IMG/VR virus record: IMGVR_UViG_3300027653_000005
Location: 1-37,182 of that record
Direction: 5' to 3' (one strand)
Source of the DNA: a virus
Taxonomy: Duplodnaviria > Caudoviricetes
DNA: 37,182 bases
Below the pieces are notes generated by a model. That model saw nothing but the letters and a program-made list of their open reading frames with translations, did not search any database and was not told where the DNA came from. The number at the start of each line of letters is the position of its first letter. Position 1 is the stretch's first letter. A program made the position numbers and the translations under genes. This document shows, one piece after another, positions 9,757 to 31,798 of this stretch.

Positions 9757-10641
9757 CTAATCCTCGATGCCAAGGTCACGCGCCCGCTCATCCAACTCCT
9801 CATCAGACAAGGAACGAATAGCGTCTACGTCGACTTCTTTAATCTCAATGACATCCTTAAACAACCCAAGATGCTTCCCAATCAATTCGCGCACCTTCAA
9901 CTGGTCATGAATCATCGGCTGCGGACCATTCGGCGTGAGCTTAATCCCCGCAAACAACTTTTTAGCGCCTGGAGATAACTTCGTCGTATCCGCGAACACC
10001 GTGCGAGTCTCCCCAGCCCCACCGCAAGCAGGACAAGCCGGATTAGGCAACAAATCATCACTAAACCCAACACCGCCCCTCATGCTTGGCTCAACCGGCA
10101 GGTACTTCCGCCCCGCCTGCACAGCTTCCAACTCCGCCATGATCCACTTCTCATGCGCAACATCGAACTCTAATTGACTGCGCCATTGGTACTCGTGATT
10201 AACGCCGTGGCACCGCCTGCACGCCGTAGTGACGCTGCGCATAATTTCATTAACATCAGCCCGCGCCATCTCCGCAAGGTCTGCCATGGCTTCCTCTGGG
10301 CCGTACTGAAGCGCCTTGCGGTGCTTTGCTAATCTACGTTGTATCTCATCCTGTATTTCAGGTCGCTTCAATACTTCGTGAGCAGTGCGTCCGGCCGTGC
10401 GTTCCGCGTATCCAGCGGCCTTTGCAGCGCCGGTTGCGTTCATCCAATTCTTTTTTGAGAAGTAGTGATCGAGGAATAGCAGGTGGCGTTTATTCGTGAT
10501 GGCTTTCGCGGTTGCGGCGGTGGGTTCGAGTGCTTTGTCTCTGACTTTCTGTGCGGCACGAGCTACATCGGCGGCTTTATTGTTGCCGGCACGTCCGTGT
10601 AGTTTCTTATTTTTCAGCGAGGTTTTACCTGTCGTACTCAT
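9757..10641 (-). CDS. terS: Terminase small subunit with a Zn-binding insertion
   Basis: HTH-like NATGAAKAAGYAERTA, CRRCHG...CPACGG pair, and ELIGKHLGLF. Confidence 0.9.
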   Translation of the reverse strand: MSTTGKTSLKNKKLHGRAGNNKAADVARAAQKVRDKALEPTAATAKAITNKRHLLFLDHYFSKKNWMNATGAAKAAGYAERTAGRTAHEVLKRPEIQDEIQRRLAKHRKALQYGPEEAMADLAEMARADVNEIMRSVTTACRRCHGVNHEYQWRSQLEFDVAHEKWIMAELEAVQAGRKYLPVEPSMRGGVGFSDDLLPNPACPACGGAGETRTVFADTTKLSPGAKKLFAGIKLTPNGPQPMIHDQLKVRELIGKHLGLFKDVIEIKEVDVDAIRSLSDEELDERARDLGIED

Positions 10642-10647
10642 GATTGG

Positions 10648-10653
10648 AGTTTA
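10648..10653 (-). promoter_or_regulatory. Putative leaderless late promoter -10 box (TAAACT) 6 nt upstream of the terS ATG
   Basis: The minus strand reads TAAACT-CCAATC-ATG. There is no SD and no good -35. Confidence 0.5.
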
Positions 10654-10665
10654 CAACACGCGGGA

Positions 10666-10967
10666 AAGGTAGTGCTCACGTTGCATCTGCCCGACTTGTA
10701 TAAGCAGATGGTTTCGTGAGCGCCTTGAATTGAAGAAACCATGGTTACGTTATCACGTCTTGGAATGTTGGGGTAGTAATTGACGCTCGCTCTGGTTAAC
10801 CCGGCCACGGGAATTTTCAGAACGAGCGTCGATGGCAGAACACTTGCAGTTTAACACAATTAGGAACCCCGGCCGTGCTGGGAGAGGAGAAAGACGCACA
10901 AAGGCCGGGGCATGTACTAGGACAGTACGCATCTGCCTAGTGCCAATGTACCGAGGAAGCAGTACAT
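10666..10967 (+). ncRNA. Candidate structured non-coding element (at least five hairpins)
   Basis: Stems GCTCACG/CGTGAGC + CATCTGC/GCAGATG; GACGCTCG/CGAGCGTC; CCCCGGCC/GGCCGGGG; ACTAGG/CCTAGT; ATGTAC/GTACAT. Wobble pairs favour the + strand. Confidence 0.4.
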
Positions 10968-10979
10968 CCTTAATATACA

Positions 10980-11018
10980 GCAAAACGCTCGGTGCCTACT
11001 GAACACCGAGCGCTTTGC
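10980..11018 (-). terminator. Intrinsic terminator of the leftward early operon
   Basis: 9-bp stem CGCTCGGTG/CACCGAGCG followed by TTTTG on the minus strand, about 50 nt after the MTase stop. Confidence 0.65.
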
Positions 11019-11068
11019 CACTCTCACTAAGGACGATACATGCACCCCCGAGCAGGGGTACCCAAAGA

Positions 11069-11830
11069 TTACCACAACGACGGTTGCATGGACAAATCAG
11101 AATCGCCCTCCTCTGCTTCTTCCACGAGTGGTACGGCTTCCACGGGAATATCTTCGTGAGAATCACGCCCAACGCGGTAACGCCACAGCCCGAGAATGAA
11201 CGCGGGAGTGTAGAAAACATCGAATACTTCAAGCGTGAGTGTGTTCCCCACAACAACGCGAGCGGGAATGTGCAGCAAGGCTAGTTGCACGTACAGCATG
11301 AGTGCCGCGTCACGATCCAACTCCCAAGCCGTTACCAGTAATTGCTTTTGCGGGTTTAACCCCCATGACCGCATGAGCTTCGATGCTTCAATGAGCATGC
11401 CGCCAGCACCAGCAGCAGGCTCGTACAGAGTTACGAACCCTTTGCGGGCAATGACCTCTTTCGCGGCATCTTCCTGCATGGATAGGGCCGCAACGAGGCC
11501 GCTCACTTCGCGAGGCGTGAAAAACTGGCCCCACGACCCTTCACCCCACCCGCTAAGCATGAAAATCTCGCCGAGCGCGTCGTGAGGATCTTCCTCCATA
11601 ATCATTGTGAGCATCCCGAGCGCATCCGCGAATGCTTTCATGACCTCGTGCCCGTAACGGTCAACCAAGGTGGCGTATTCGCTCTCTAAATCGTTTTTAG
11701 CGGCACCTGTAGATACTGACGAGCGGAACGTAAGCGACATCGCGGCTACCCAGTCACGGAATAACTCCCAGCCACGGCGAGCCACAGCGTGCTTATTGAT
11801 GAGTTTAATAATCTCCCGCCCGTGATTCAT
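11069..11830 (-). CDS. Truncated N6-adenine methyltransferase-like protein (type I M-like, no NPPF/Y motif)
   Basis: GQFFTP and the SAM-binding motif YEPAAGAGGMLI are present; the protein ends after VVGNTL...FYTP. Confidence 0.8.
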   Translation of the reverse strand: MNHGREIIKLINKHAVARRGWELFRDWVAAMSLTFRSSVSTGAAKNDLESEYATLVDRYGHEVMKAFADALGMLTMIMEEDPHDALGEIFMLSGWGEGSWGQFFTPREVSGLVAALSMQEDAAKEVIARKGFVTLYEPAAGAGGMLIEASKLMRSWGLNPQKQLLVTAWELDRDAALMLYVQLALLHIPARVVVGNTLTLEVFDVFYTPAFILGLWRYRVGRDSHEDIPVEAVPLVEEAEEGDSDLSMQPSLW

Positions 11831-11997
11831 GCCCACAGTGCCCCAAGGAACGCTGCAGCGATCGCTGCCAACACAGACGCAAACATTAATAGCAACACGG
11901 TTTTTTCAAGCCAGTTAATGCTATCCCAACTATCCCACAGCATGTAAGCATTTAAGCCAACGGCGCTTACAGCTACAAGGACAACGAACACGCTCAT
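11827..11997 (-). CDS. Small two-TM membrane protein
   Basis: 56 aa with two hydrophobic segments; ATGA coupling to both neighbours. Confidence 0.6.
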   Translation of the reverse strand: MSVFVVLVAVSAVGLNAYMLWDSWDSINWLEKTVLLLMFASVLAAIAAAFLGALWA

Positions 11998-12164
11998 GAT
12001 GTTGCCCATTGAATCGCTGCAACAACAAGCGCAAGTAATCCCGCGCCTACCCCAATGCGTGACACGGTTCGTACAGATTCACGCTTCCCACGCCAGTGCT
12101 GCACAAGTTGAACCGGTAGTAATCCCCACATGATGATGAGTAGTCCGTTAATCACGTAATTCAC
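11994..12164 (-). CDS. Small two-TM membrane protein
   Basis: GTG at 12164 gives MNYVINGLLIIMWGLLPVQL...GVGAGLLALVVAAIQWATS. Confidence 0.5.
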   Translation of the reverse strand: MNYVINGLLIIMWGLLPVQLVQHWRGKRESVRTVSRIGVGAGLLALVVAAIQWATS

Positions 12165-12427
12165 AGTAATCTTCCAATCACAGCGCTGATTCCCGCTCTT
12201 GTCTGTCCAGCTGTTGAGGGAGAGTTTTCCACTTGCGAGAATTGCGGTGCCGATTGGAACATTGGCGAGGTTCTCGGCGCGCTGGCCAAAGATTTTGGCG
12301 CGTTGAATTGCGGGGGATTTATCCCCGTCGGTGTGTGCGGAGAGGGTGAGGGTGGCATGGCAAGGCCACCCTGTGTGTAGTTCAGTTCGCACGCGGAGAG
12401 AGCCGCCTTGATACTGACAGCGTTCAC
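12161..12427 (-). pseudogene. ssb: Frameshifted, truncated single-stranded DNA-binding protein
   Basis: Frame 1 MNAVSIKAALSACELNYTQGGLA joins frame 2 TLTLS...KIFGQRAENLA...SGKLSLNSWTDKSGNQR through an apparent 1-nt loss near 12357. The joined sequence has an SSB OB-fold pattern. Confidence 0.7.
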
Positions 12428-12666
12428 TCCGTCACCTCTGCAACGTTGTGTTTTTCGAGGACGTAATCGCCGCCATCGCCTGAGAGCGCGTGGCCTGTTT
12501 CCGCCAGCTCTTCAGCGATTGCTGTCGGCGCGAAAATCGGGCTCGGTACCAATCCAAGCAAATCGTTGAACATAGGTCGGCCGTTGAAGACTGCAAGGAC
12601 TTTTTTCCCGGTGATTCTTAACTCGCTATCGCGACGCTCTCGGATTAAAAGCCAAGCCTTGCTCAT
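12424..12666 (-). CDS. Hypothetical protein
   Basis: 80 aa, coupled to both neighbours. Confidence 0.55.
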   Translation of the reverse strand: MSKAWLLIRERRDSELRITGKKVLAVFNGRPMFNDLLGLVPSPIFAPTAIAEELAETGHALSGDGGDYVLEKHNVAEVTE

Positions 12667-15840: not shown

Positions 15841-16241
15841 TCCTCATTCTCTGAAACAAGCACAATGTTGCCATCAAAAACAATCACTGAATACGCACGC
15901 CCATAATCATTTGTAATCACGCGCCCAGTGAAATCACCATCCCGATACCAAGGAATTACCCACCACATGTCGCGATAGCCCTCCACAGCAATCTCAATCC
16001 ACATCTGCGTCAACTCAACGGTGTAGAAAGCCATGAGCGAGAAACACGTGTACCCGAGCTCCTCAACAACGGACTCGTAAGGCTGGCAACCAATCGTGCC
16101 ATCAAGGTCATTCGCGAGCCTAAACGCGAACTCCTCCCCTGATAAACCCTGCGCGGATACGGACCCGCCACTAAGCGCTACAGCCACAATCGCCAGCAGC
16201 AACACAAACATTTTCTTCGACTTCTCAAACATTTTACGCAT
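15837..16241 (-). CDS. Secreted/periplasmic protein with a signal peptide
   Basis: SD AAGGAGG; MRKMFEKSKKMFVLLLAIVAVALSGGSVSA/QG is a typical SPase I signal. Confidence 0.65.
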   Translation of the reverse strand: MRKMFEKSKKMFVLLLAIVAVALSGGSVSAQGLSGEEFAFRLANDLDGTIGCQPYESVVEELGYTCFSLMAFYTVELTQMWIEIAVEGYRDMWWVIPWYRDGDFTGRVITNDYGRAYSVIVFDGNIVLVSENED

Positions 16242-16776
16242 TTTCTTCCTCCTTAACGAAGATCCCGTCGACCATGCGGCCGGTACGGCCTTTAATCTCA
16301 TGCCAAGCGTGATTCAAGCACGCCGCAAGCGACGCACCAACTTGCCCGGCATTCTTATCCAACGCGCTAAGCGCTTCCCAAATCGCGAGTGCCACGAGCA
16401 CGTCACGCGACGGTGAACGGTCTTGCAACGCCACCGCCAGCATCGTCAACGCGTAATCAATCGCTACGCGACGATGGTCAGCAATTGGTGGCAACTTATC
16501 CACCACGCCTTCCTGCGCGGCGATGATGATGAGCACCACGGCCGTATCGCCAATGGCATCTTTCATCTCATCTCGAATACCGGCCAACTCGGTGGCGTTC
16601 ACATACGCCGGGTCGCGCCGGTACTCTGCGAGGGCTTCCACCGCCAACAAGTACTCCCCATGCTCTTCCATGAGTTTCAGGAATTGCGCGGCGGGGTTAC
16701 TGCCAGCGATTAGGTTACGAGCTTCCGCCCACGTGACAACGTTCGCGATGAGCTCTTGATACGAGTAATTTTCCAT
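16234..16776 (-). CDS. MazG-like nucleotide pyrophosphohydrolase
   Basis: Motifs WAEARNL, QFLKLMEEHGE, DAIGD and EIKGRTGRMVDGIFVKE. Confidence 0.88.
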   Translation of the reverse strand: MENYSYQELIANVVTWAEARNLIAGSNPAAQFLKLMEEHGEYLLAVEALAEYRRDPAYVNATELAGIRDEMKDAIGDTAVVLIIIAAQEGVVDKLPPIADHRRVAIDYALTMLAVALQDRSPSRDVLVALAIWEALSALDKNAGQVGASLAACLNHAWHEIKGRTGRMVDGIFVKEEENA

Positions 16777-16802
16777 GCCTACCTCTTTCCGCCCCCTTGG
16801 GC

Positions 16803-16858
16803 TACGTTGCACTTTACCACACTTTGCTACACATTGCTACACCCTCGCAACGGTTGCG
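16803..16858 (-). promoter_or_regulatory. Internal promoter/operator with 10-bp tandem repeats and an inverted repeat
   Basis: Minus strand GTGTAGCAAT GTGTAGCAAA GTGTGGTAAA GTGCAACGTA; extended -10 TGgTAAAGT; inverted repeat CGCAAC-G-GTTGCG at 16846-16858. Confidence 0.55.
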
Positions 16859-20379: not shown

Positions 20380-22569
20380 ATGAAACAAGTCAGAATCGAA
20401 ACAATCGACCTCAAAAACTTCAAAGGCCTCACCGCCACCTACCAATTAGACGGCGACAGTCACCGCTTCAGCGGATGGCACGCCACCGGCAAAAGCCGCA
20501 TCGGCGACGCAATCATGTTCACCCTCGACGGAGCAGACCAAAAAGGAGAACAAAACCCCGAACAATTCAAAAACAACGACGCCGAACCCGGCGAACGCCC
20601 CGCACGCGTCACCCTCACCATCACCATCAACGGGAAAGAACACACCTTGCTGCGTGAAATCAGGGAACGCACACACGACGCAGACGGCCACCGCGTAGTA
20701 ACCGGCCACAGCACGTACTTTGAACTCAACGGCACCAAAGTCACGAAACGAGACTACGACGACTTCATCGCCGACGAAATCGGAACACCCGCCGACATCC
20801 GGAAAGCAATGCAATTGTGGGGAATCGTGCACCTCTCACCCGGCGAACTCCGCCAAGAAATCCTCTCAATCGCCGGCGACGTAACACTCCAACAAGTCGC
20901 CGACGCACACCCCGACGTAGCACCAGCACTCGAACTCGTAGAAGACGGCGACCTTACCAAGACCCGGAAAAACTTGGATCGTGAAATTCGCGCCATTTCA
21001 CCACAGAAAACGGAGTTGCAAAACCGAATCGACGAAAACCAGCACGCCCTCGACACGCTCGACAAGCCGGAGAATATCGTCGACCTCGAGCAAGCAGTCA
21101 CCAAGGCCGAGGCAAGCGAAACAGAAGCCCGCGCCACTCTCGAAGCGCTCGAACGCGGCGACAATACGGACGCTCGCAACAAAATCGCAGCCCTCGAACG
21201 AGAAATACACGAGTTGCGCGACGCCCAGACAAGCCGCCGAAAACAAGCAGTGGCGGCCGAGCGTCACGACCTTGAACAGGAAGCATCCGAGGCACAAGAA
21301 GCAGCCGACGAGAAACAAAAAGCGGCACGCGCCGCAGAAACCACCCTCGCCGACGACCAGCGCGACGAACGCCGCATGGCCATGGAAATCAAAGACATCG
21401 AGCAACACGTCGCCACCCTCAAAAAAGGCGTGGAAACCGCGCTCAAGAATCGTGACGACCTCCGCGAACAATGGGCAGAAGTATCCAACGAACCCGTAAC
21501 CGTCACCGCGAGAGACGTAACACCCAACGAGGCCGCCCTCATACAGGCCGCCCTCGACCTCGTAGTGGAACTCGACGAACTTGACCAGTCCGACCTACCC
21601 GACACGGCATGGAAAGCCGTAGACGCGCTCGTAGCAACATGCGACGCAACGAAATACGGCATGAGCGCCGAAGAAGCACAACAAGCAGCCGAAGCCGCCA
21701 AGCAAAAGAAACTCGACGACCTTGCCAAAACCGGGCAAGATGCCAACGAAGCCGTCGAGACGCGCCAAAAAGACCTCGACGCAGCCGCAGCAAACCTCGA
21801 AGTGCTGCAACAAGACCACGAAACAATGACCGGACAGGTCGCACTTTCACAAACAGCCGTCGACCAAGCACGAGCAGCCGAACAGGAAGCCACCAAGGCC
21901 GCCACCGCTGCACGTGACGCACTCGCTAACCTCGCAATGCCACCCGAAGACCCAACCGAATGGGAGCACCTCACACGGCAAATCGAGGAACTCAAGCAAG
22001 CAATCGACGCACCAGCCGAAAACCTCGACGCAATCCGCGCACAGTACGACGAAGCCAAGCAGGCCGCAACCGCTGCACGCGCCGCACTTGCAGATGCCAA
22101 GGCACTCGCCAACGTAGCGACGAGCACCGAGAATCGAATCGAACAACTCCGCAACCAATTCCAAGCCGTTGTCGAGAACCACGAACGCCTGCTACGCAAC
22201 CGAGACCTGCTTGACAAACTCGCACGGAAACAAGTCGAAATGCTCGACGAGAACCTCGCAAACACCTTCAAGGTAGCCAAGTTTCAATTACTCCGCATCA
22301 ACTTCGAAGGCAACCTCGAAGAAGTCTGCCGCATCTACACACAAGACGGCGTGCCATTCACCGCTACAAACGAAGCCGAGCAAGCAGAAATCGCGCTCGA
22401 CATCGCACTCGCCAAGCAACGCGCCATCGAAGTGAACGCCCCCATCATCGTGGATCGACGCGAAAGCTACTTATCGCTCCCAATGCACCTTGACGGGCAC
22501 CAATTCGTAACAATGCAAGTCACGGACACCCAAGGCGCACCCCTCACCGTAGAGAAAGTAGAGAAATGA
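20380..22569 (+). CDS. Rad50/SbcC-like AAA ATPase with a long coiled coil
   Basis: IDLKNFKG start, Walker A GWHATGKS, Walker B IIVDRRES. Confidence 0.85.
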   Translation: MKQVRIETIDLKNFKGLTATYQLDGDSHRFSGWHATGKSRIGDAIMFTLDGADQKGEQNPEQFKNNDAEPGERPARVTLTITINGKEHTLLREIRERTHDADGHRVVTGHSTYFELNGTKVTKRDYDDFIADEIGTPADIRKAMQLWGIVHLSPGELRQEILSIAGDVTLQQVADAHPDVAPALELVEDGDLTKTRKNLDREIRAISPQKTELQNRIDENQHALDTLDKPENIVDLEQAVTKAEASETEARATLEALERGDNTDARNKIAALEREIHELRDAQTSRRKQAVAAERHDLEQEASEAQEAADEKQKAARAAETTLADDQRDERRMAMEIKDIEQHVATLKKGVETALKNRDDLREQWAEVSNEPVTVTARDVTPNEAALIQAALDLVVELDELDQSDLPDTAWKAVDALVATCDATKYGMSAEEAQQAAEAAKQKKLDDLAKTGQDANEAVETRQKDLDAAAANLEVLQQDHETMTGQVALSQTAVDQARAAEQEATKAATAARDALANLAMPPEDPTEWEHLTRQIEELKQAIDAPAENLDAIRAQYDEAKQAATAARAALADAKALANVATSTENRIEQLRNQFQAVVENHERLLRNRDLLDKLARKQVEMLDENLANTFKVAKFQLLRINFEGNLEEVCRIYTQDGVPFTATNEAEQAEIALDIALAKQRAIEVNAPIIVDRRESYLSLPMHLDGHQFVTMQVTDTQGAPLTVEKVEK

Positions 22570-23243
22570 ACGAAATAAACTTCGACGCACTCGAACGGAA
22601 AGCCCAAGCCTTCGCAGCATCAGGCATGTTCGGGAAAATGAGCAAAGATGAGGCGCTAAGTCGCCTCATACTCGCTCACGACCTCGGACTCGGAGACGTT
22701 AGCGCAATGCGAGACATTTACCACGCCAACGACGGCAATATCGCCATCAGAGGCCCCGCATACGCCGCTAAGGTATCCAGCCACCCGAACTACACCTTCG
22801 ACATGACAGAATCAACACGGGAGCGCTGCACCATCACCCTCACCCGCAGAAGCGACGGGCAGTCATGGACAAGCACCCTCACGATTGAACAAGCCGAGCA
22901 AGAGGGCTTCTCAAACACGGAGGCATGGACAGCCAACCCGGATGCAATGCTTTACTACCGCCTATTATCGAAAATGGTGCGGTGGTACGCCGGGGATATT
23001 TGGAACAACAACACGATCTACTCAAGCGCCGACTTCACAGAAACTCAAAACGTTGCGCCAGAGAAACCAATCGACATTGACAACCTTCCAATCCCAGAAC
23101 CCGAACAGGTATCCTTGGAAGAACTCGACGAACCCGAAGAAACAACCGAACCCGTCGAGGAAGAAACCACTGAAACGGAGGAAAACACAGTGCCTGAAAC
23201 AGCCGAAACCAACACCGTATCCGCGAAAGACGCACCATTCTAA
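22566..23243 (+). CDS. RecT-like single-strand annealing protein
   Basis: Motifs LGLGDVSAMRDIY, LTIEQAEQEG and WTANPDAMLYYRLLSKMVRWY; acidic tail ending APF; position in an AAA-RecT-MBL module. Confidence 0.75.
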   Translation: MNEINFDALERKAQAFAASGMFGKMSKDEALSRLILAHDLGLGDVSAMRDIYHANDGNIAIRGPAYAAKVSSHPNYTFDMTESTRERCTITLTRRSDGQSWTSTLTIEQAEQEGFSNTEAWTANPDAMLYYRLLSKMVRWYAGDIWNNNTIYSSADFTETQNVAPEKPIDIDNLPIPEPEQVSLEELDEPEETTEPVEEETTETEENTVPETAETNTVSAKDAPF

Positions 23244-24256
23244 TGCTCATCTTCGAACAAATCGCAAGCAGCTCAGCGGGAAACATGTACTTGCTGCACG
23301 CACCACACACGAAACCCCTGTTAATCGAAGCAGGCCTGCCCATCGCAGCTATCACAGAACGGGTAAGCCTCGGCGGCCTATCCGGCCTGTTAGTCAGCCA
23401 CGAACACAAAGACCACAGCGCCAGCGCCGCCGCAATCACCGCACGAGGCGTACCAACCGTTGCGCTCCCAGAAACCGCAAAGAAAATCGGGATACGAGAA
23501 TCGAGAAACTACATCCCAGTAAAACCCCACGGAGTCAACGTACAAGTAGGCCCATGGCACGTACGGGCCATACCCGCAAGCCACGACGTACCATGCGCCG
23601 GGTTCGTCATCACACACCCCCAGCATGGCCGCGCACTGTTTTGGACAGACAGCGCAACACCACCGCCACTGATTAAGAACCTCAAGGTGGCTGCTATTGA
23701 AACAAACTACCGCCCGGAACTGTTGGAACACCGCCGGCAAGCCGGAGAAACAAGCAATTACCTCGCCCAACGAGTCAAAGAAACCCACCTAAGCATCGGT
23801 AAAGCCCTTGCGTGGATAACCGCGCAACACGCCAGGGAACCACTAGAAGCCGTACACCTGCTTCACATCAGCGCTAGGCATGGAGACCCCACAGCGTTCG
23901 CTAGCGCAGCGAGAATGGCCGCACCCGGCGCTAGCGTCACCGCACTTGGGGAAAAAGTCGCAACACCCTCACCCGACACCGTTTGCGTCACCCGTCACGA
24001 CGCACTCGCCCAGTACCTCAAAGAAATCGGACTGATAGACGAGAACACGCCGATACTCAAACGAGCAACACCCGACGAAATTCGCGGCAAACACGCCGTG
24101 GGAATCATTCCGTACTGGCTTGCGCGGTACGCCGCATCGGTAACGGTGATCCAATTGAATCGTCCGGCGGTTAATCGCAACCGGGAATTATCGTTGCCAG
24201 AAGTCAGGGAAGCAGCGGGTAAGCCTGTGACGTATCGAGTGGAGCAGATCAGTTAA
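23243..24256 (+). CDS. MBL-fold metallohydrolase fused to a C-terminal Csx16-like domain
   Basis: The N-terminal part has SSSAGN, HxHxDH (SHEHKDH), SHD, IETNY and LLHIS. Residues ~245-337 carry VTRH...G(I)IP.(W)LA...RELSLPEVR...TYRV. Confidence 0.8.
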   Translation: MLIFEQIASSSAGNMYLLHAPHTKPLLIEAGLPIAAITERVSLGGLSGLLVSHEHKDHSASAAAITARGVPTVALPETAKKIGIRESRNYIPVKPHGVNVQVGPWHVRAIPASHDVPCAGFVITHPQHGRALFWTDSATPPPLIKNLKVAAIETNYRPELLEHRRQAGETSNYLAQRVKETHLSIGKALAWITAQHAREPLEAVHLLHISARHGDPTAFASAARMAAPGASVTALGEKVATPSPDTVCVTRHDALAQYLKEIGLIDENTPILKRATPDEIRGKHAVGIIPYWLARYAASVTVIQLNRPAVNRNRELSLPEVREAAGKPVTYRVEQIS

Positions 24257-24315
24257 TCAATTGTGAGCCCGTTTACATTCGGCCTTAACATACCTTCATT
24301 CCTTGCCCGCACCGG

Positions 24316-24345
24316 TTGACAACGTTGACCCGTGCGGGTTATACT
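24316..24345 (+). promoter_or_regulatory. Strong sigma70-type promoter with an operator in the spacer
   Basis: TTGACA-18 nt-TATACT; perfect inverted repeat ACCCG-TG-CGGGT at 24328-24339. Confidence 0.75.
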
Positions 24346-24373
24346 TTATACAAGAAAGAAGGAGGAACCACCA

Positions 24374-24982
24374 ATGACCAAAGAAGCCTACAGCATCGCA
24401 ACCAAACACAACGGCCGCTACAACATCATCGCCACCGTCAGCTACGGGCACGTCACCGACCGCCCAGAAAAGGAGCCAACCATGCCAACCCTCGAAACCA
24501 TTTACATCGACACCACCCCAAACTCGCAGGACTTCCGCGACAACTTCCTCCACCAGCACGACGCACGAATCTACGCCGACGAAATCGGCCGCCGCGGACT
24601 CAACCAAGTCATCCAAGACGAAATGAACCAATTCGTACAAGACGATTGGGCCACGGCCGAAGAAACCGAAGAGAACACGCACGAACTCACCGCCGCGCAA
24701 TTCGCGGAAATCATGATCGAACACGTCGTGGACACGGTCGAAATCACCAGCCGCGACCCACACACGCACCTCAACTACGAAACCGTCGACGGCGACGAAG
24801 AAGCCGCCGTAATTATCGACCCCGCAATCGATGAATGGGAAGACGCGGCCGACGCGGCACTCAAAGCAGAAGGCCTCACGCGCGTCACCCCGTGGATTGA
24901 AAACGAGCACGGAGAAGTCACCTGCAAAGTCACTGTGCACAGCAGCCGCCGCGACATCATCCAGCTCGCCGGAATCAGATAA
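24374..24982 (+). CDS. Acidic hypothetical protein (candidate anti-defence; alternative start at 24482)
   Basis: SD AAGGAGG before 24374 and AAGGAG before 24482; very D/E-rich. Confidence 0.7.
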   Translation: MTKEAYSIATKHNGRYNIIATVSYGHVTDRPEKEPTMPTLETIYIDTTPNSQDFRDNFLHQHDARIYADEIGRRGLNQVIQDEMNQFVQDDWATAEETEENTHELTAAQFAEIMIEHVVDTVEITSRDPHTHLNYETVDGDEEAAVIIDPAIDEWEDAADAALKAEGLTRVTPWIENEHGEVTCKVTVHSSRRDIIQLAGIR

Positions 24983-25032
24983 CCAATAAGGCCCGGCCGG
25001 AGCCAGCAATCCGGCCAGAAAGGAACCCCGAC

Positions 25033-29728: not shown

Positions 29729-31798
29729 CTAATTTTGTTTCGACGGCTGCCCGTCATCAAGCATCCAAAACTCACCACTATCGAGCTGTAAAAACTCCGT
29801 CGACGGTGCCGGATGCACCGCGCCACTACTTGACGGGTTCGGAATCTCAACCTGAATATCCACGCTGAACACCCCACCCGCAGCGTGCCCTACGCGGTAC
29901 TGTCGACCAACAAGTACCCCAACTTCCCCTGTTGGTAATGATACAACGCGCCCCACGTGCTCATTCCGCACCTTCGCTGAACCAATCGCCGTGAGACTAA
30001 GCGTGCGCGTAACCATTGGCTGCAAACCACGAAGCACACCACCCGTCGCAATCGCCTCTAACTGCGGAACACGAACATCGTACCCCTCCACAGTCAACGA
30101 TTTTTCAACAACCCCATACACATCCTGCGACAACTTAATCGCGTTACCACCACCCGGCGCTGGCACGAAATCACCATCAGTAAGCACACCGTACTGGCCA
30201 GACAATGACGACGTGGAGCGCTTAATCGCCGTTGTAGCATCCGCAAGCGCCACCTCAAGCACAATCGTGTACCAACCGCCCGTAGCCCAAAAGTAATTCT
30301 GAAGGGATTGCCAATCCGCAACCGTGAAAATCACACCACCCGCAGTTTCAGACCACCGCGCCCGCAGCTTCACCCAACGATCAAGCGGAGAATCGGGATG
30401 CTGCCACGTCACCACATCCACTGTTTGCCCCGTAAATGGAATGAAATCATTATGAATCGCCACAACCGCCGCTGCTTTCGAAGCATGCACCTGCTCAACG
30501 GGGCCGTCGCCTTCAGCGCGTGAGAAGAACTCTGCAGCTGCCGCGTTTAACATGAATGACCCGCCGGAATCACGCAGCTTAATCCCATCACCGGCTACTA
30601 ATTGGTCCTCCTCGCTAATAACCCACGCGGCGGGCAATTGCTCACTTGGGTTCGCCATCCACTTCAACCCTGCTTGCAGCGGCCCGGACCCGGTGATTGG
30701 CGGTTGCAGGTTCGCGCGATTTGGTGGCGTGTACCAGATTGCACCGGCGTTTGTGGTCGTGTTACGCCCGAACAGGCGATGCCCGCCGATTTGAAACCAC
30801 GCTGGTTCAAGCACGCCAACGTTTTCCTGTTCCGTGACGGGGTACGCCTGCACTGTCCAACGATTCGTAATGTTCAATAAATCAGGCTTACCTTCGCTAA
30901 TGCTTACAATGTCGCGGTGCTCAAGGTTAATTGGTGAATCATCCGCATCAGGGCCGTAAGCAGGCACGATTTGCAACCGCCCAGCTTCGTCTTGCCGCCA
31001 CACCGTGCCCGGAAACGGTGAAAGTAAATCTTCCAGCACATCCAACATGCTGTACTCACGACCCGACGGGCCAGACTCACGGGCATACAACAATCCCCTC
31101 ACGGTGAGCCTGCCCATCTCTGGCGCTGCTCTGTAATCCGCTGGGGTCCCCATGTCCGCGGTGAGTGTTCGAAGGTCAGGAACAGGCGCGTAATCAAACC
31201 ACGGGAACATTAAATTCCCGTCTGAATCTTTCGCGTCATTCTTCCAGAAGTTAAAAACGTACTCGATTGCTTGCTTCGCGGTGCGGTCATCGCCCGGGTT
31301 CCACTCAATGCGTGGCGTGATAGCACGCGCCATGAGTGTGAGAATTGTTGCACCGCTTGCCGTGATGACACCACCCGGGTTTTGCGTCGGACGCGGGTAC
31401 ACAAGCAGGTCGCGATTAGGATCGTGCCGTGAGCGTGTAACTTCCCGGTGAGCGAGCACCTCTTCACTGTTTAACCTTGCGAACACGCTGTACTCGCCAT
31501 TGAAGCCAACGTCAATCGCTGGGGCGTCAACCGTATCCAACAGTGAGCCGGTATCGATGCTCGTGAATACACCTAATTCGTTTACAGCGCCGACGCCTAC
31601 GAATGGAACACGCCACCACGCGTACCCCTGCACATCTGTGAGACTATACAAGTTACCGAGGCCCCAACCCCGCCCAAGAAATGACCGCGAATCAACCGCC
31701 CCATCATCCGGCAACTCCGCACTAACCGTGACAACTGGAATTACCGGAGGCGTGAAACGCAAACCACTCTCAAGAGTAAAGGGGTTAAGGCCAGCCAT
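29729..31798 (-). CDS. Tail tip / baseplate hub-like protein
   Basis: 689 aa in the tail-tip block; WRQDEAGRLQIVP is hub-like. Confidence 0.65.
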   Translation of the reverse strand: MAGLNPFTLESGLRFTPPVIPVVTVSAELPDDGAVDSRSFLGRGWGLGNLYSLTDVQGYAWWRVPFVGVGAVNELGVFTSIDTGSLLDTVDAPAIDVGFNGEYSVFARLNSEEVLAHREVTRSRHDPNRDLLVYPRPTQNPGGVITASGATILTLMARAITPRIEWNPGDDRTAKQAIEYVFNFWKNDAKDSDGNLMFPWFDYAPVPDLRTLTADMGTPADYRAAPEMGRLTVRGLLYARESGPSGREYSMLDVLEDLLSPFPGTVWRQDEAGRLQIVPAYGPDADDSPINLEHRDIVSISEGKPDLLNITNRWTVQAYPVTEQENVGVLEPAWFQIGGHRLFGRNTTTNAGAIWYTPPNRANLQPPITGSGPLQAGLKWMANPSEQLPAAWVISEEDQLVAGDGIKLRDSGGSFMLNAAAAEFFSRAEGDGPVEQVHASKAAAVVAIHNDFIPFTGQTVDVVTWQHPDSPLDRWVKLRARWSETAGGVIFTVADWQSLQNYFWATGGWYTIVLEVALADATTAIKRSTSSLSGQYGVLTDGDFVPAPGGGNAIKLSQDVYGVVEKSLTVEGYDVRVPQLEAIATGGVLRGLQPMVTRTLSLTAIGSAKVRNEHVGRVVSLPTGEVGVLVGRQYRVGHAAGGVFSVDIQVEIPNPSSSGAVHPAPSTEFLQLDSGEFWMLDDGQPSKQN

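Follow-up and report, generated by a model that had tools for sequence, protein, structure and literature searches.

Csx16 is a CRISPR-associated protein for which ring nuclease activity on cyclic tetra-adenylate (cA4) has been demonstrated, and in a published AlphaFold 3 model it forms a homodimer (PMC12409355). Here, we describe a Csx16 domain in IMG/VR record IMGVR_UViG_3300027653_000005 (the whole 37,182-bp stretch is referred to as the window), a complete phage record with direct terminal repeats, where the domain ends a single open reading frame (ORF) of 337 amino acids (aa) that begins with a metallo-β-lactamase (MBL)-fold hydrolase (positions 23243..24256, plus strand). With a probability of about 0.52, we favor a reading in which the two modules work independently, the MBL in phage recombination and Csx16 by cutting cA4 to counter type III CRISPR immunity. 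Unlike the CRISPR-associated proteins, the window copy is phage-encoded, is fused to a 240-aa MBL, lies outside any CRISPR locus (no other cas family was found in the phage record among the 41 to 42 ORFs scanned), and has Arg for the second His and Asn for Gly313; its cleavage of cA4 is predicted only. At 337 aa, the protein is above the 250-aa cutoff that the Csx16 survey stated for CRISPR loci, with a phage search described as similar, and that survey reported Csx16 in 2 of 28,114 cultured phage genomes (PMC12409355). AcrIII-1/Crn2 proteins (DUF1874) are like the window Csx16 in proposed function and give its best, albeit weak, fold match, but the domain is not a member: HHalign against 10 DUF1874 proteins returned a probability of 2.4% over 16 columns, no Pfam DUF1874 match was found, and by alignment ranges the window domain has nothing that corresponds to the first 36 to 38 residues of AcrIII-1, among them the invariant N8.

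Among described systems related to the MBL half, the phage RecT-linked MBL (phrog_392; the recT-lactamase B2 module of PMC8093625, in its accessible part) has the same gene order, full metal motifs, and a length of ∼240 aa; the window protein adds a C-terminal Csx16, while seven other relatives stand alone. Apyc1, as presented in the available portion of PMC9117128, shares the MBL fold, the HxHxDH motif, and a phage origin with the window MBL, but is not its closest structure, and the window MBL is part of a recombination operon. A nuclease is likewise joined to a C-terminal ring nuclease domain in Csx1-Crn2 and other effector-ring nuclease fusions (PMC7293037 and PMC11317161, accessible parts of both). 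These fusions are host effectors that carry a CARF sensor, and their ring nuclease restrains activation of the effector itself; the window MBL, by contrast, is viral and has no known sensor of cyclic oligoadenylates (cOA). Both parts of the protein are known, and their combination appears to be new: a literature search, with most subscription papers outside its reach, found no MBL-Csx16 fusion and no report of a tested viral Csx16.

The MBL-Csx16 fusion is real. An original prediction, made from the sequence alone, had described one uninterrupted ORF joining an MBL to a C-terminal domain with no Shine-Dalgarno (SD) site or start of its own, and both points were borne out. The 337-aa ORF contains the motif SHEHKDH and the C-terminal sequence quoted in that prediction without an internal stop; no in-frame ATG, GTG, or TTG occurs between codons 226 and 260, and the nearest candidate start (ATG, codon 225) falls within the last MBL helix and has no SD-like match. 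The junction was bridged by contigs in 8 of 8 runs compared (seven studies; these runs exclude the one flagged as a possible source), with no indel listed inside the ORF, and two more full-length 337-aa variants were present in the protein collection, one from a sister strain (P0002) and one designated P0152. Contigs of an RNA library (run X19) also span the junction; they come without a silent control stretch and hence are not evidence of transcription. Among the differences listed, strains were up to 13 to 17% apart over parts of the 5′ MBL portion, and the shorter contigs covering the Csx16 part showed 0 to 3 differences. At 23200 to 23850, the 5′ MBL alleles of co-occurring strains, 13 to 17% apart, rejoin a 3′ MBL-Csx16 stretch that hardly varies, a pattern that a recent sweep or frequent recombination could explain. 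Word shares of 0.6 to 0.67 had suggested strains without Csx16; this was rejected, as the contigs contain the domain and their differences lie in the 5′ portion of the MBL. Codon 310 (24170..24172, plus strand) encodes Val in the window and Asp in other strains: a T-to-A difference at 24171 in all eight runs yields D310, also found in P0002 and P0152, and this position is mostly acidic in the family (Glu in 99 of 163, Asp in 25 of 163).

The C-terminal domain (aa 244 to 337; 23972..24253, plus strand) was identified as Csx16 by profile, homologues, structural model, and predicted homodimer, in line with the original prediction. PF09652 (Cas_VVA1548) matched aa 249 to 333 with an E value of 2.8 × 10−9 and 37.5 bits against a cutoff of 25 (40.5 bits on DNA). 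The comparison with Csx16, Crn, and AcrIII-1 that had been proposed as a check was therefore positive for the Csx16 profile, while the DUF1874 profile match was not significant and the fold match was weak. The domain model is confident (predicted local distance difference test [pLDDT] of 94.8), and a homodimer was predicted with a score of 0.76 against 0.00 for the best control, through an interface of aa 290 to 304 and 329 to 337 (20 of 30 solved pairs attained the score mark, as did 1 of 23 single chains; the prediction was made without ligand). With only 3 of 10 alignment rows covering Csx16, the full-length model cannot be relied on in that half, and no contact between the domains is read from it. 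Searching the PDB by sequence returned chance matches only (ribosomal S0 and DARPins), and Foldseek found nothing for the domain at an E value of ≤0.001 in PDB or BFVD. Within the domain, R251-H252 (23993..23998, plus strand) form part of a conserved T-R-H motif. The counterpart of H252 is His in 149 of 162 aligned homologous domains and in 43 of 44 viral domains, and H252 itself lies, by alignment range, where three AcrIII-1/Crn2 structures (2j6b, 6scf, and 8y7f/8y7g; weak Z scores of 4.0 to 4.9) have their catalytic His; from these alignments, H252 is likely the catalytic histidine. The (S/T)RH, GxxP, and RxxEL residues are invariant in seven sequences, including three CRISPR-locus copies, and the window domain keeps R251-H252, G287, P290, R312, E315, and L316. 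A mapping of R312 and E315 to R85 and E88 of AcrIII-1 by spacing was dropped, as a short HHalign block gives another register. Separately, two stand-alone viral Csx16 copies (L002, 4998 to 5300; L059, 1100 to 1402) lack both histidines (TRY at the first site, Arg at the second); located upstream of an SNF2 helicase gene, they are possible noncatalytic variants.

The preceding 240 aa (23243..23962, plus strand) form an MBL-fold hydrolase of a YycJ/RNase Z-like phage family, as judged from profile, alignment, and fold matches; PF12706 spans aa 40 to 198 and phrog_392 spans aa 4 to 240 (E = 3.2 × 10−39). H53, H55, D57, H58, H114, D136, H182, and H208 are all kept, and the metal-ligand positions, invariant in ten aligned sequences, make up a full two-metal site. 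The seven relatives besides the sister strain are 27 to 35% identical, 226 to 247 aa long, and without PF09652. The MBL half matched 116 INPHARED records, and in the best match, Bacteroides phage Versailles (ON453897), the order SbcC-RecT-MBL is kept with the MBL unfused; this gene order and the phrog_392 match agree with the earlier assignment of the MBL to an AAA-RecT-MBL module. Pairs of recT and lactamase B2 occur in prophages without a recognizable exonuclease (PMC8093625, in the part available), which by analogy suggests a recombination nuclease role for the RecT-linked MBL. The parallel with Apyc1 that had also been drawn did not stand: the Apyc1-type model NF041851 gave 15.3 bits against a cutoff of 400, placing the MBL outside that group and with the ordinary RecT-linked kind. 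By fold, its neighbors are RNase Z-like proteins and YhfI, and Apyc1 comes at rank 21; the HxHxDH two-metal site is present but common to the whole superfamily, so it is not diagnostic of Apyc1, for which a nucleotide-binding loop has been described (PMC11724313, accessible part). Some Atlas clusters neighboring the MBL carry PF23023 (Apyc1) on 14 to 65% of members, and MBL relatives in Porphyromonas phages are annotated as Apyc1-like.

To place the domain within its family, we used a related set of 908 protein clusters, a large mobile-element Csx16 group of which 150 were inspected and provide the homologue counts. An extension of at least 50 aa on one side was found in 62 of 149 homologues and tandem domains in 14 of 149; 79 extensions of at least 40 aa, some of which may be wrong start calls, showed 7 pairwise links only, none to an MBL. 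A motif scan gave 51 IMG/VR loci and another search one more, and the available flanks of these 52 other viral Csx16 loci contain no relative of the MBL, RecT, or SbcC. Pfam matches were obtained for 18 of 87 flanking ORFs; several were to replication genes, and no MBL or Cas family was among them. Searching for the same fusion, as had been suggested, recovered sister variants from this phage lineage alone: the single match among 74 candidates was P0002, and other searches returned three stand-alone Csx16 loci and the window's own contig (L057), which is not independent. INPHARED held no match to the window's Csx16 domain, and a genome scan placed 1 of 301 genomes over the cutoff, this being the seed genome itself. 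Because the domain joins many partners and an MBL only once, gene capture is indicated rather than a conserved two-step machine. Plasmids and two cultured viruses also carry Csx16 away from any CRISPR locus, and in the nearest Atlas clusters most of the few members that have a record are viral. In a quick tree, in which 32 of 51 inner branches were open and viral rows had been picked by motif, the window Csx16 grouped with viral and plasmid copies and not with the three CRISPR-locus copies. The 51 viral and 3 cellular loci came from scans with different pattern numbers and give no fair rate. The 52 further loci and 908 clusters, against 2 of 28,114 genomes, make phage Csx16 look far commoner in uncultured than in cultured viruses, and it may be a major anti-type III family. 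It is also worth noting that five proteins (P0035, P0065, P0093, P0076, and P0011) share an unknown domain fused N- or C-terminally to Csx16. A gene annotated as Csx16 and encoding 261 aa (L065, 6992 to 7777) adjoins conjugation genes on Allomeiothermus plasmid pMESIL02, a record with three matching places; no CRISPR locus surrounds the gene in the stretch shown. On Deinococcus plasmid pDEIPR02, a stand-alone csx16 (L064, 6992 to 7276) sits among small genes with single-stranded DNA-binding proteins, a setting resembling the plasmid leading region where anti-defense genes gather.

An anti-type III ring nuclease, as first proposed, remains the best reading of the domain's function, while cooperation with the MBL or regulation by cOA, put forward at the same time, is unsupported because the pairing occurs in one lineage, the extensions are many and unrelated, and no MBL lies near the 52 loci. 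If the two modules work independently, the MBL-Csx16 gene, last in the SbcC-RecT-MBL unit, would be coexpressed early with the others. Two Csx16 domains are predicted to pair via their C-terminal strands, leaving the N termini free for the MBL, and cA4 would bind across the dimer and be opened to linear products; this activity is known from another Csx16, and H252 would probably act as general acid. By analogy with AcrIII-1, less cA4 would keep effectors of the Csx1/Csm6/Can type off. The fusion probably arose through insertion of a mobile csx16 gene after the MBL gene and loss of the intervening stop and start, and capture on this gene would have given csx16 early expression. Several features of the domain weigh against full activity. 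Residue 274 (24062..24064, plus strand) is Arg in the window but His in 133 of 163 homologous domains and 41 of 44 viral ones; residue 313, Gly in 44 of 44 viral relatives, is Asn; the domain also departs from the family at V285, L289, and P304; and the branch of the window Csx16 is long (1.23; median, 0.59). A copy as divergent as this (H274R, G313N) may be weakened. The same departures, together with the window's V310 and the sponges included in the related family Csx15 (PMC13148439, available part), would fit a weakened or noncatalytic relic, or a cA4 sponge, tolerated on the MBL end, which we consider unlikely, although it is the best placed of the alternatives. The conserved residues that the domain retains, its frame, intact in every run compared and with few listed differences, and its confident model with a predicted dimer all argue against this alternative. 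The second His is not universal (Asn, Gln, or Arg in loci L068, L070, and L002), and R274 may by spacing match the phosphate-binding Arg of AcrIII-1/Crn2 (R514 in Crn2; PMC11317161, accessible part), in which case H274R could be benign.

The two halves might instead be functionally linked, as one enzyme removing two classes of immune signal or as a recombination nuclease gated by the type III alarm, but this too is unlikely. In the first form, Csx16 would open cA4 and the MBL would hydrolyze the 2′,3′-cyclic-phosphate products or the cyclic nucleotide monophosphates of Pycsar. While the full two-metal site, the fold relationship to RNase Z, YhfI, and Apyc1, and the PF23023 and Porphyromonas phage annotations are consistent with such a coupled enzyme, it is made distinctly improbable by the low NF041851 score and fold rank of Apyc1, by the singleton pairing (no fused or adjacent MBL at the other loci searched), and by the position of the MBL in its usual recombination module. 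We know of no effector that linear A2 products activate, so removing them would bring little gain. In the second form, Csx16 would be a cA4 sensor switching the MBL nuclease on or off and tying phage recombination or repair to the host CRISPR alarm; were this true, the phage would repair its own DNA when cA4 rises. Such a switch matches a sensor-plus-nuclease architecture and the divergent residues around the presumed ligand site, and, since MBLs of the RNase Z/Apyc1 type are homodimeric (PMC9117128, available portion), a second dimerizing domain could alter assembly. Against it stand a dimer predicted without ligand, the retention of the likely catalytic His, which fits an enzyme, a pairing that does not recur, and published Csx16-Csx1 fusions that have been read as off-switches (PMC8284326, accessible part), and we regard it as very unlikely. 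That an assembly or sequencing error joined two separate genes, which the original prediction had allowed for and which the confinement of the fusion to one phage lineage might suggest, is of negligible probability given the bridged, indel-free junction, the two further full-length variants, and the missing internal start. The gene is a stable natural fusion present in seven studies and illustrates how an early core gene can capture a Csx16 domain, which searches limited by length can overlook. With this protein, the predicted catalytic His can be tested directly, as can a natural His-to-Arg change at a site that may mirror AcrIII-1.

A switch to G/T-ending codons in the 3′ half of the domain had been taken to suggest an add-on. 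The shift is real, with 32 of 52 codons ending in G or T over aa 286 to 337 compared to 252 of 1196 in the upstream operon (Fisher P = 9 × 10−10), but it begins near aa 286, ∼40 codons past the junction. As the first half of the domain (aa 244 to 285; 8 of 42 codons) is at background level, the shift was rejected as a marker of the junction. C and A predominate on the plus strand, and plus-strand genes therefore end codons in A or C, minus-strand genes in G or T; over the whole window, plus-strand composition (12834 C, 9773 A, 7770 G, and 6805 T) determines third-codon letters according to strand. The genome's GC skew is missing from four islands (near 10250 to 11050, 12050 to 12650, 24000 to 24400, and 31100 to 31550). 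The codon shift coincides with one of them, and a later replacement of the domain's 3′ half is possible.

The phage lineage was recorded from soil, manure, fertilizer, compost, and wastewater (20 public runs from 12 studies, with all or part of the stretch). Its minus strand carries head, tail, and lysis genes according to Pfam and phrog profile matches; terminase and endolysin matches were ≤44% identical and scattered, and no host could be assigned from them. The recombination unit on the plus strand consists of three overlapping genes, of which the first encodes an SbcC/SMC-like AAA ATPase (20380..22569; phrog_77, E = 2 × 10−29) with an SD-like match upstream and no viral relative found by search, the second a RecT-like single-strand annealing protein (22566..23243; phrog_561, E = 4.6 × 10−5), and the third the MBL-Csx16 protein. 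The stop of the RecT-like gene overlaps the ATG of the fused gene, from which we infer translational coupling. Elsewhere on the minus strand, a MazG-like pyrophosphatase (16234 to 16812) and a DNA methyltransferase (11069 to 11836) are both possible counter-defense genes. Downstream of the fusion, a strong sigma-70-like promoter (11/12; 24316 to 24345, plus strand), with a short inverted repeat around it (24307 to 24345), precedes a gene at 24374 to 24982 that has a strong SD at 24374 and no family match, followed by a small possible zinc-ribbon ORF and a helix-turn-helix-like ORF. One contig of run X2 skips 591 bases at 24440 to 25032, so the gene at 24374 to 24982 may be absent or replaced in some strains. 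The promoter-led unit from 24307 would form a separate small early unit and could carry further anti-defense genes.
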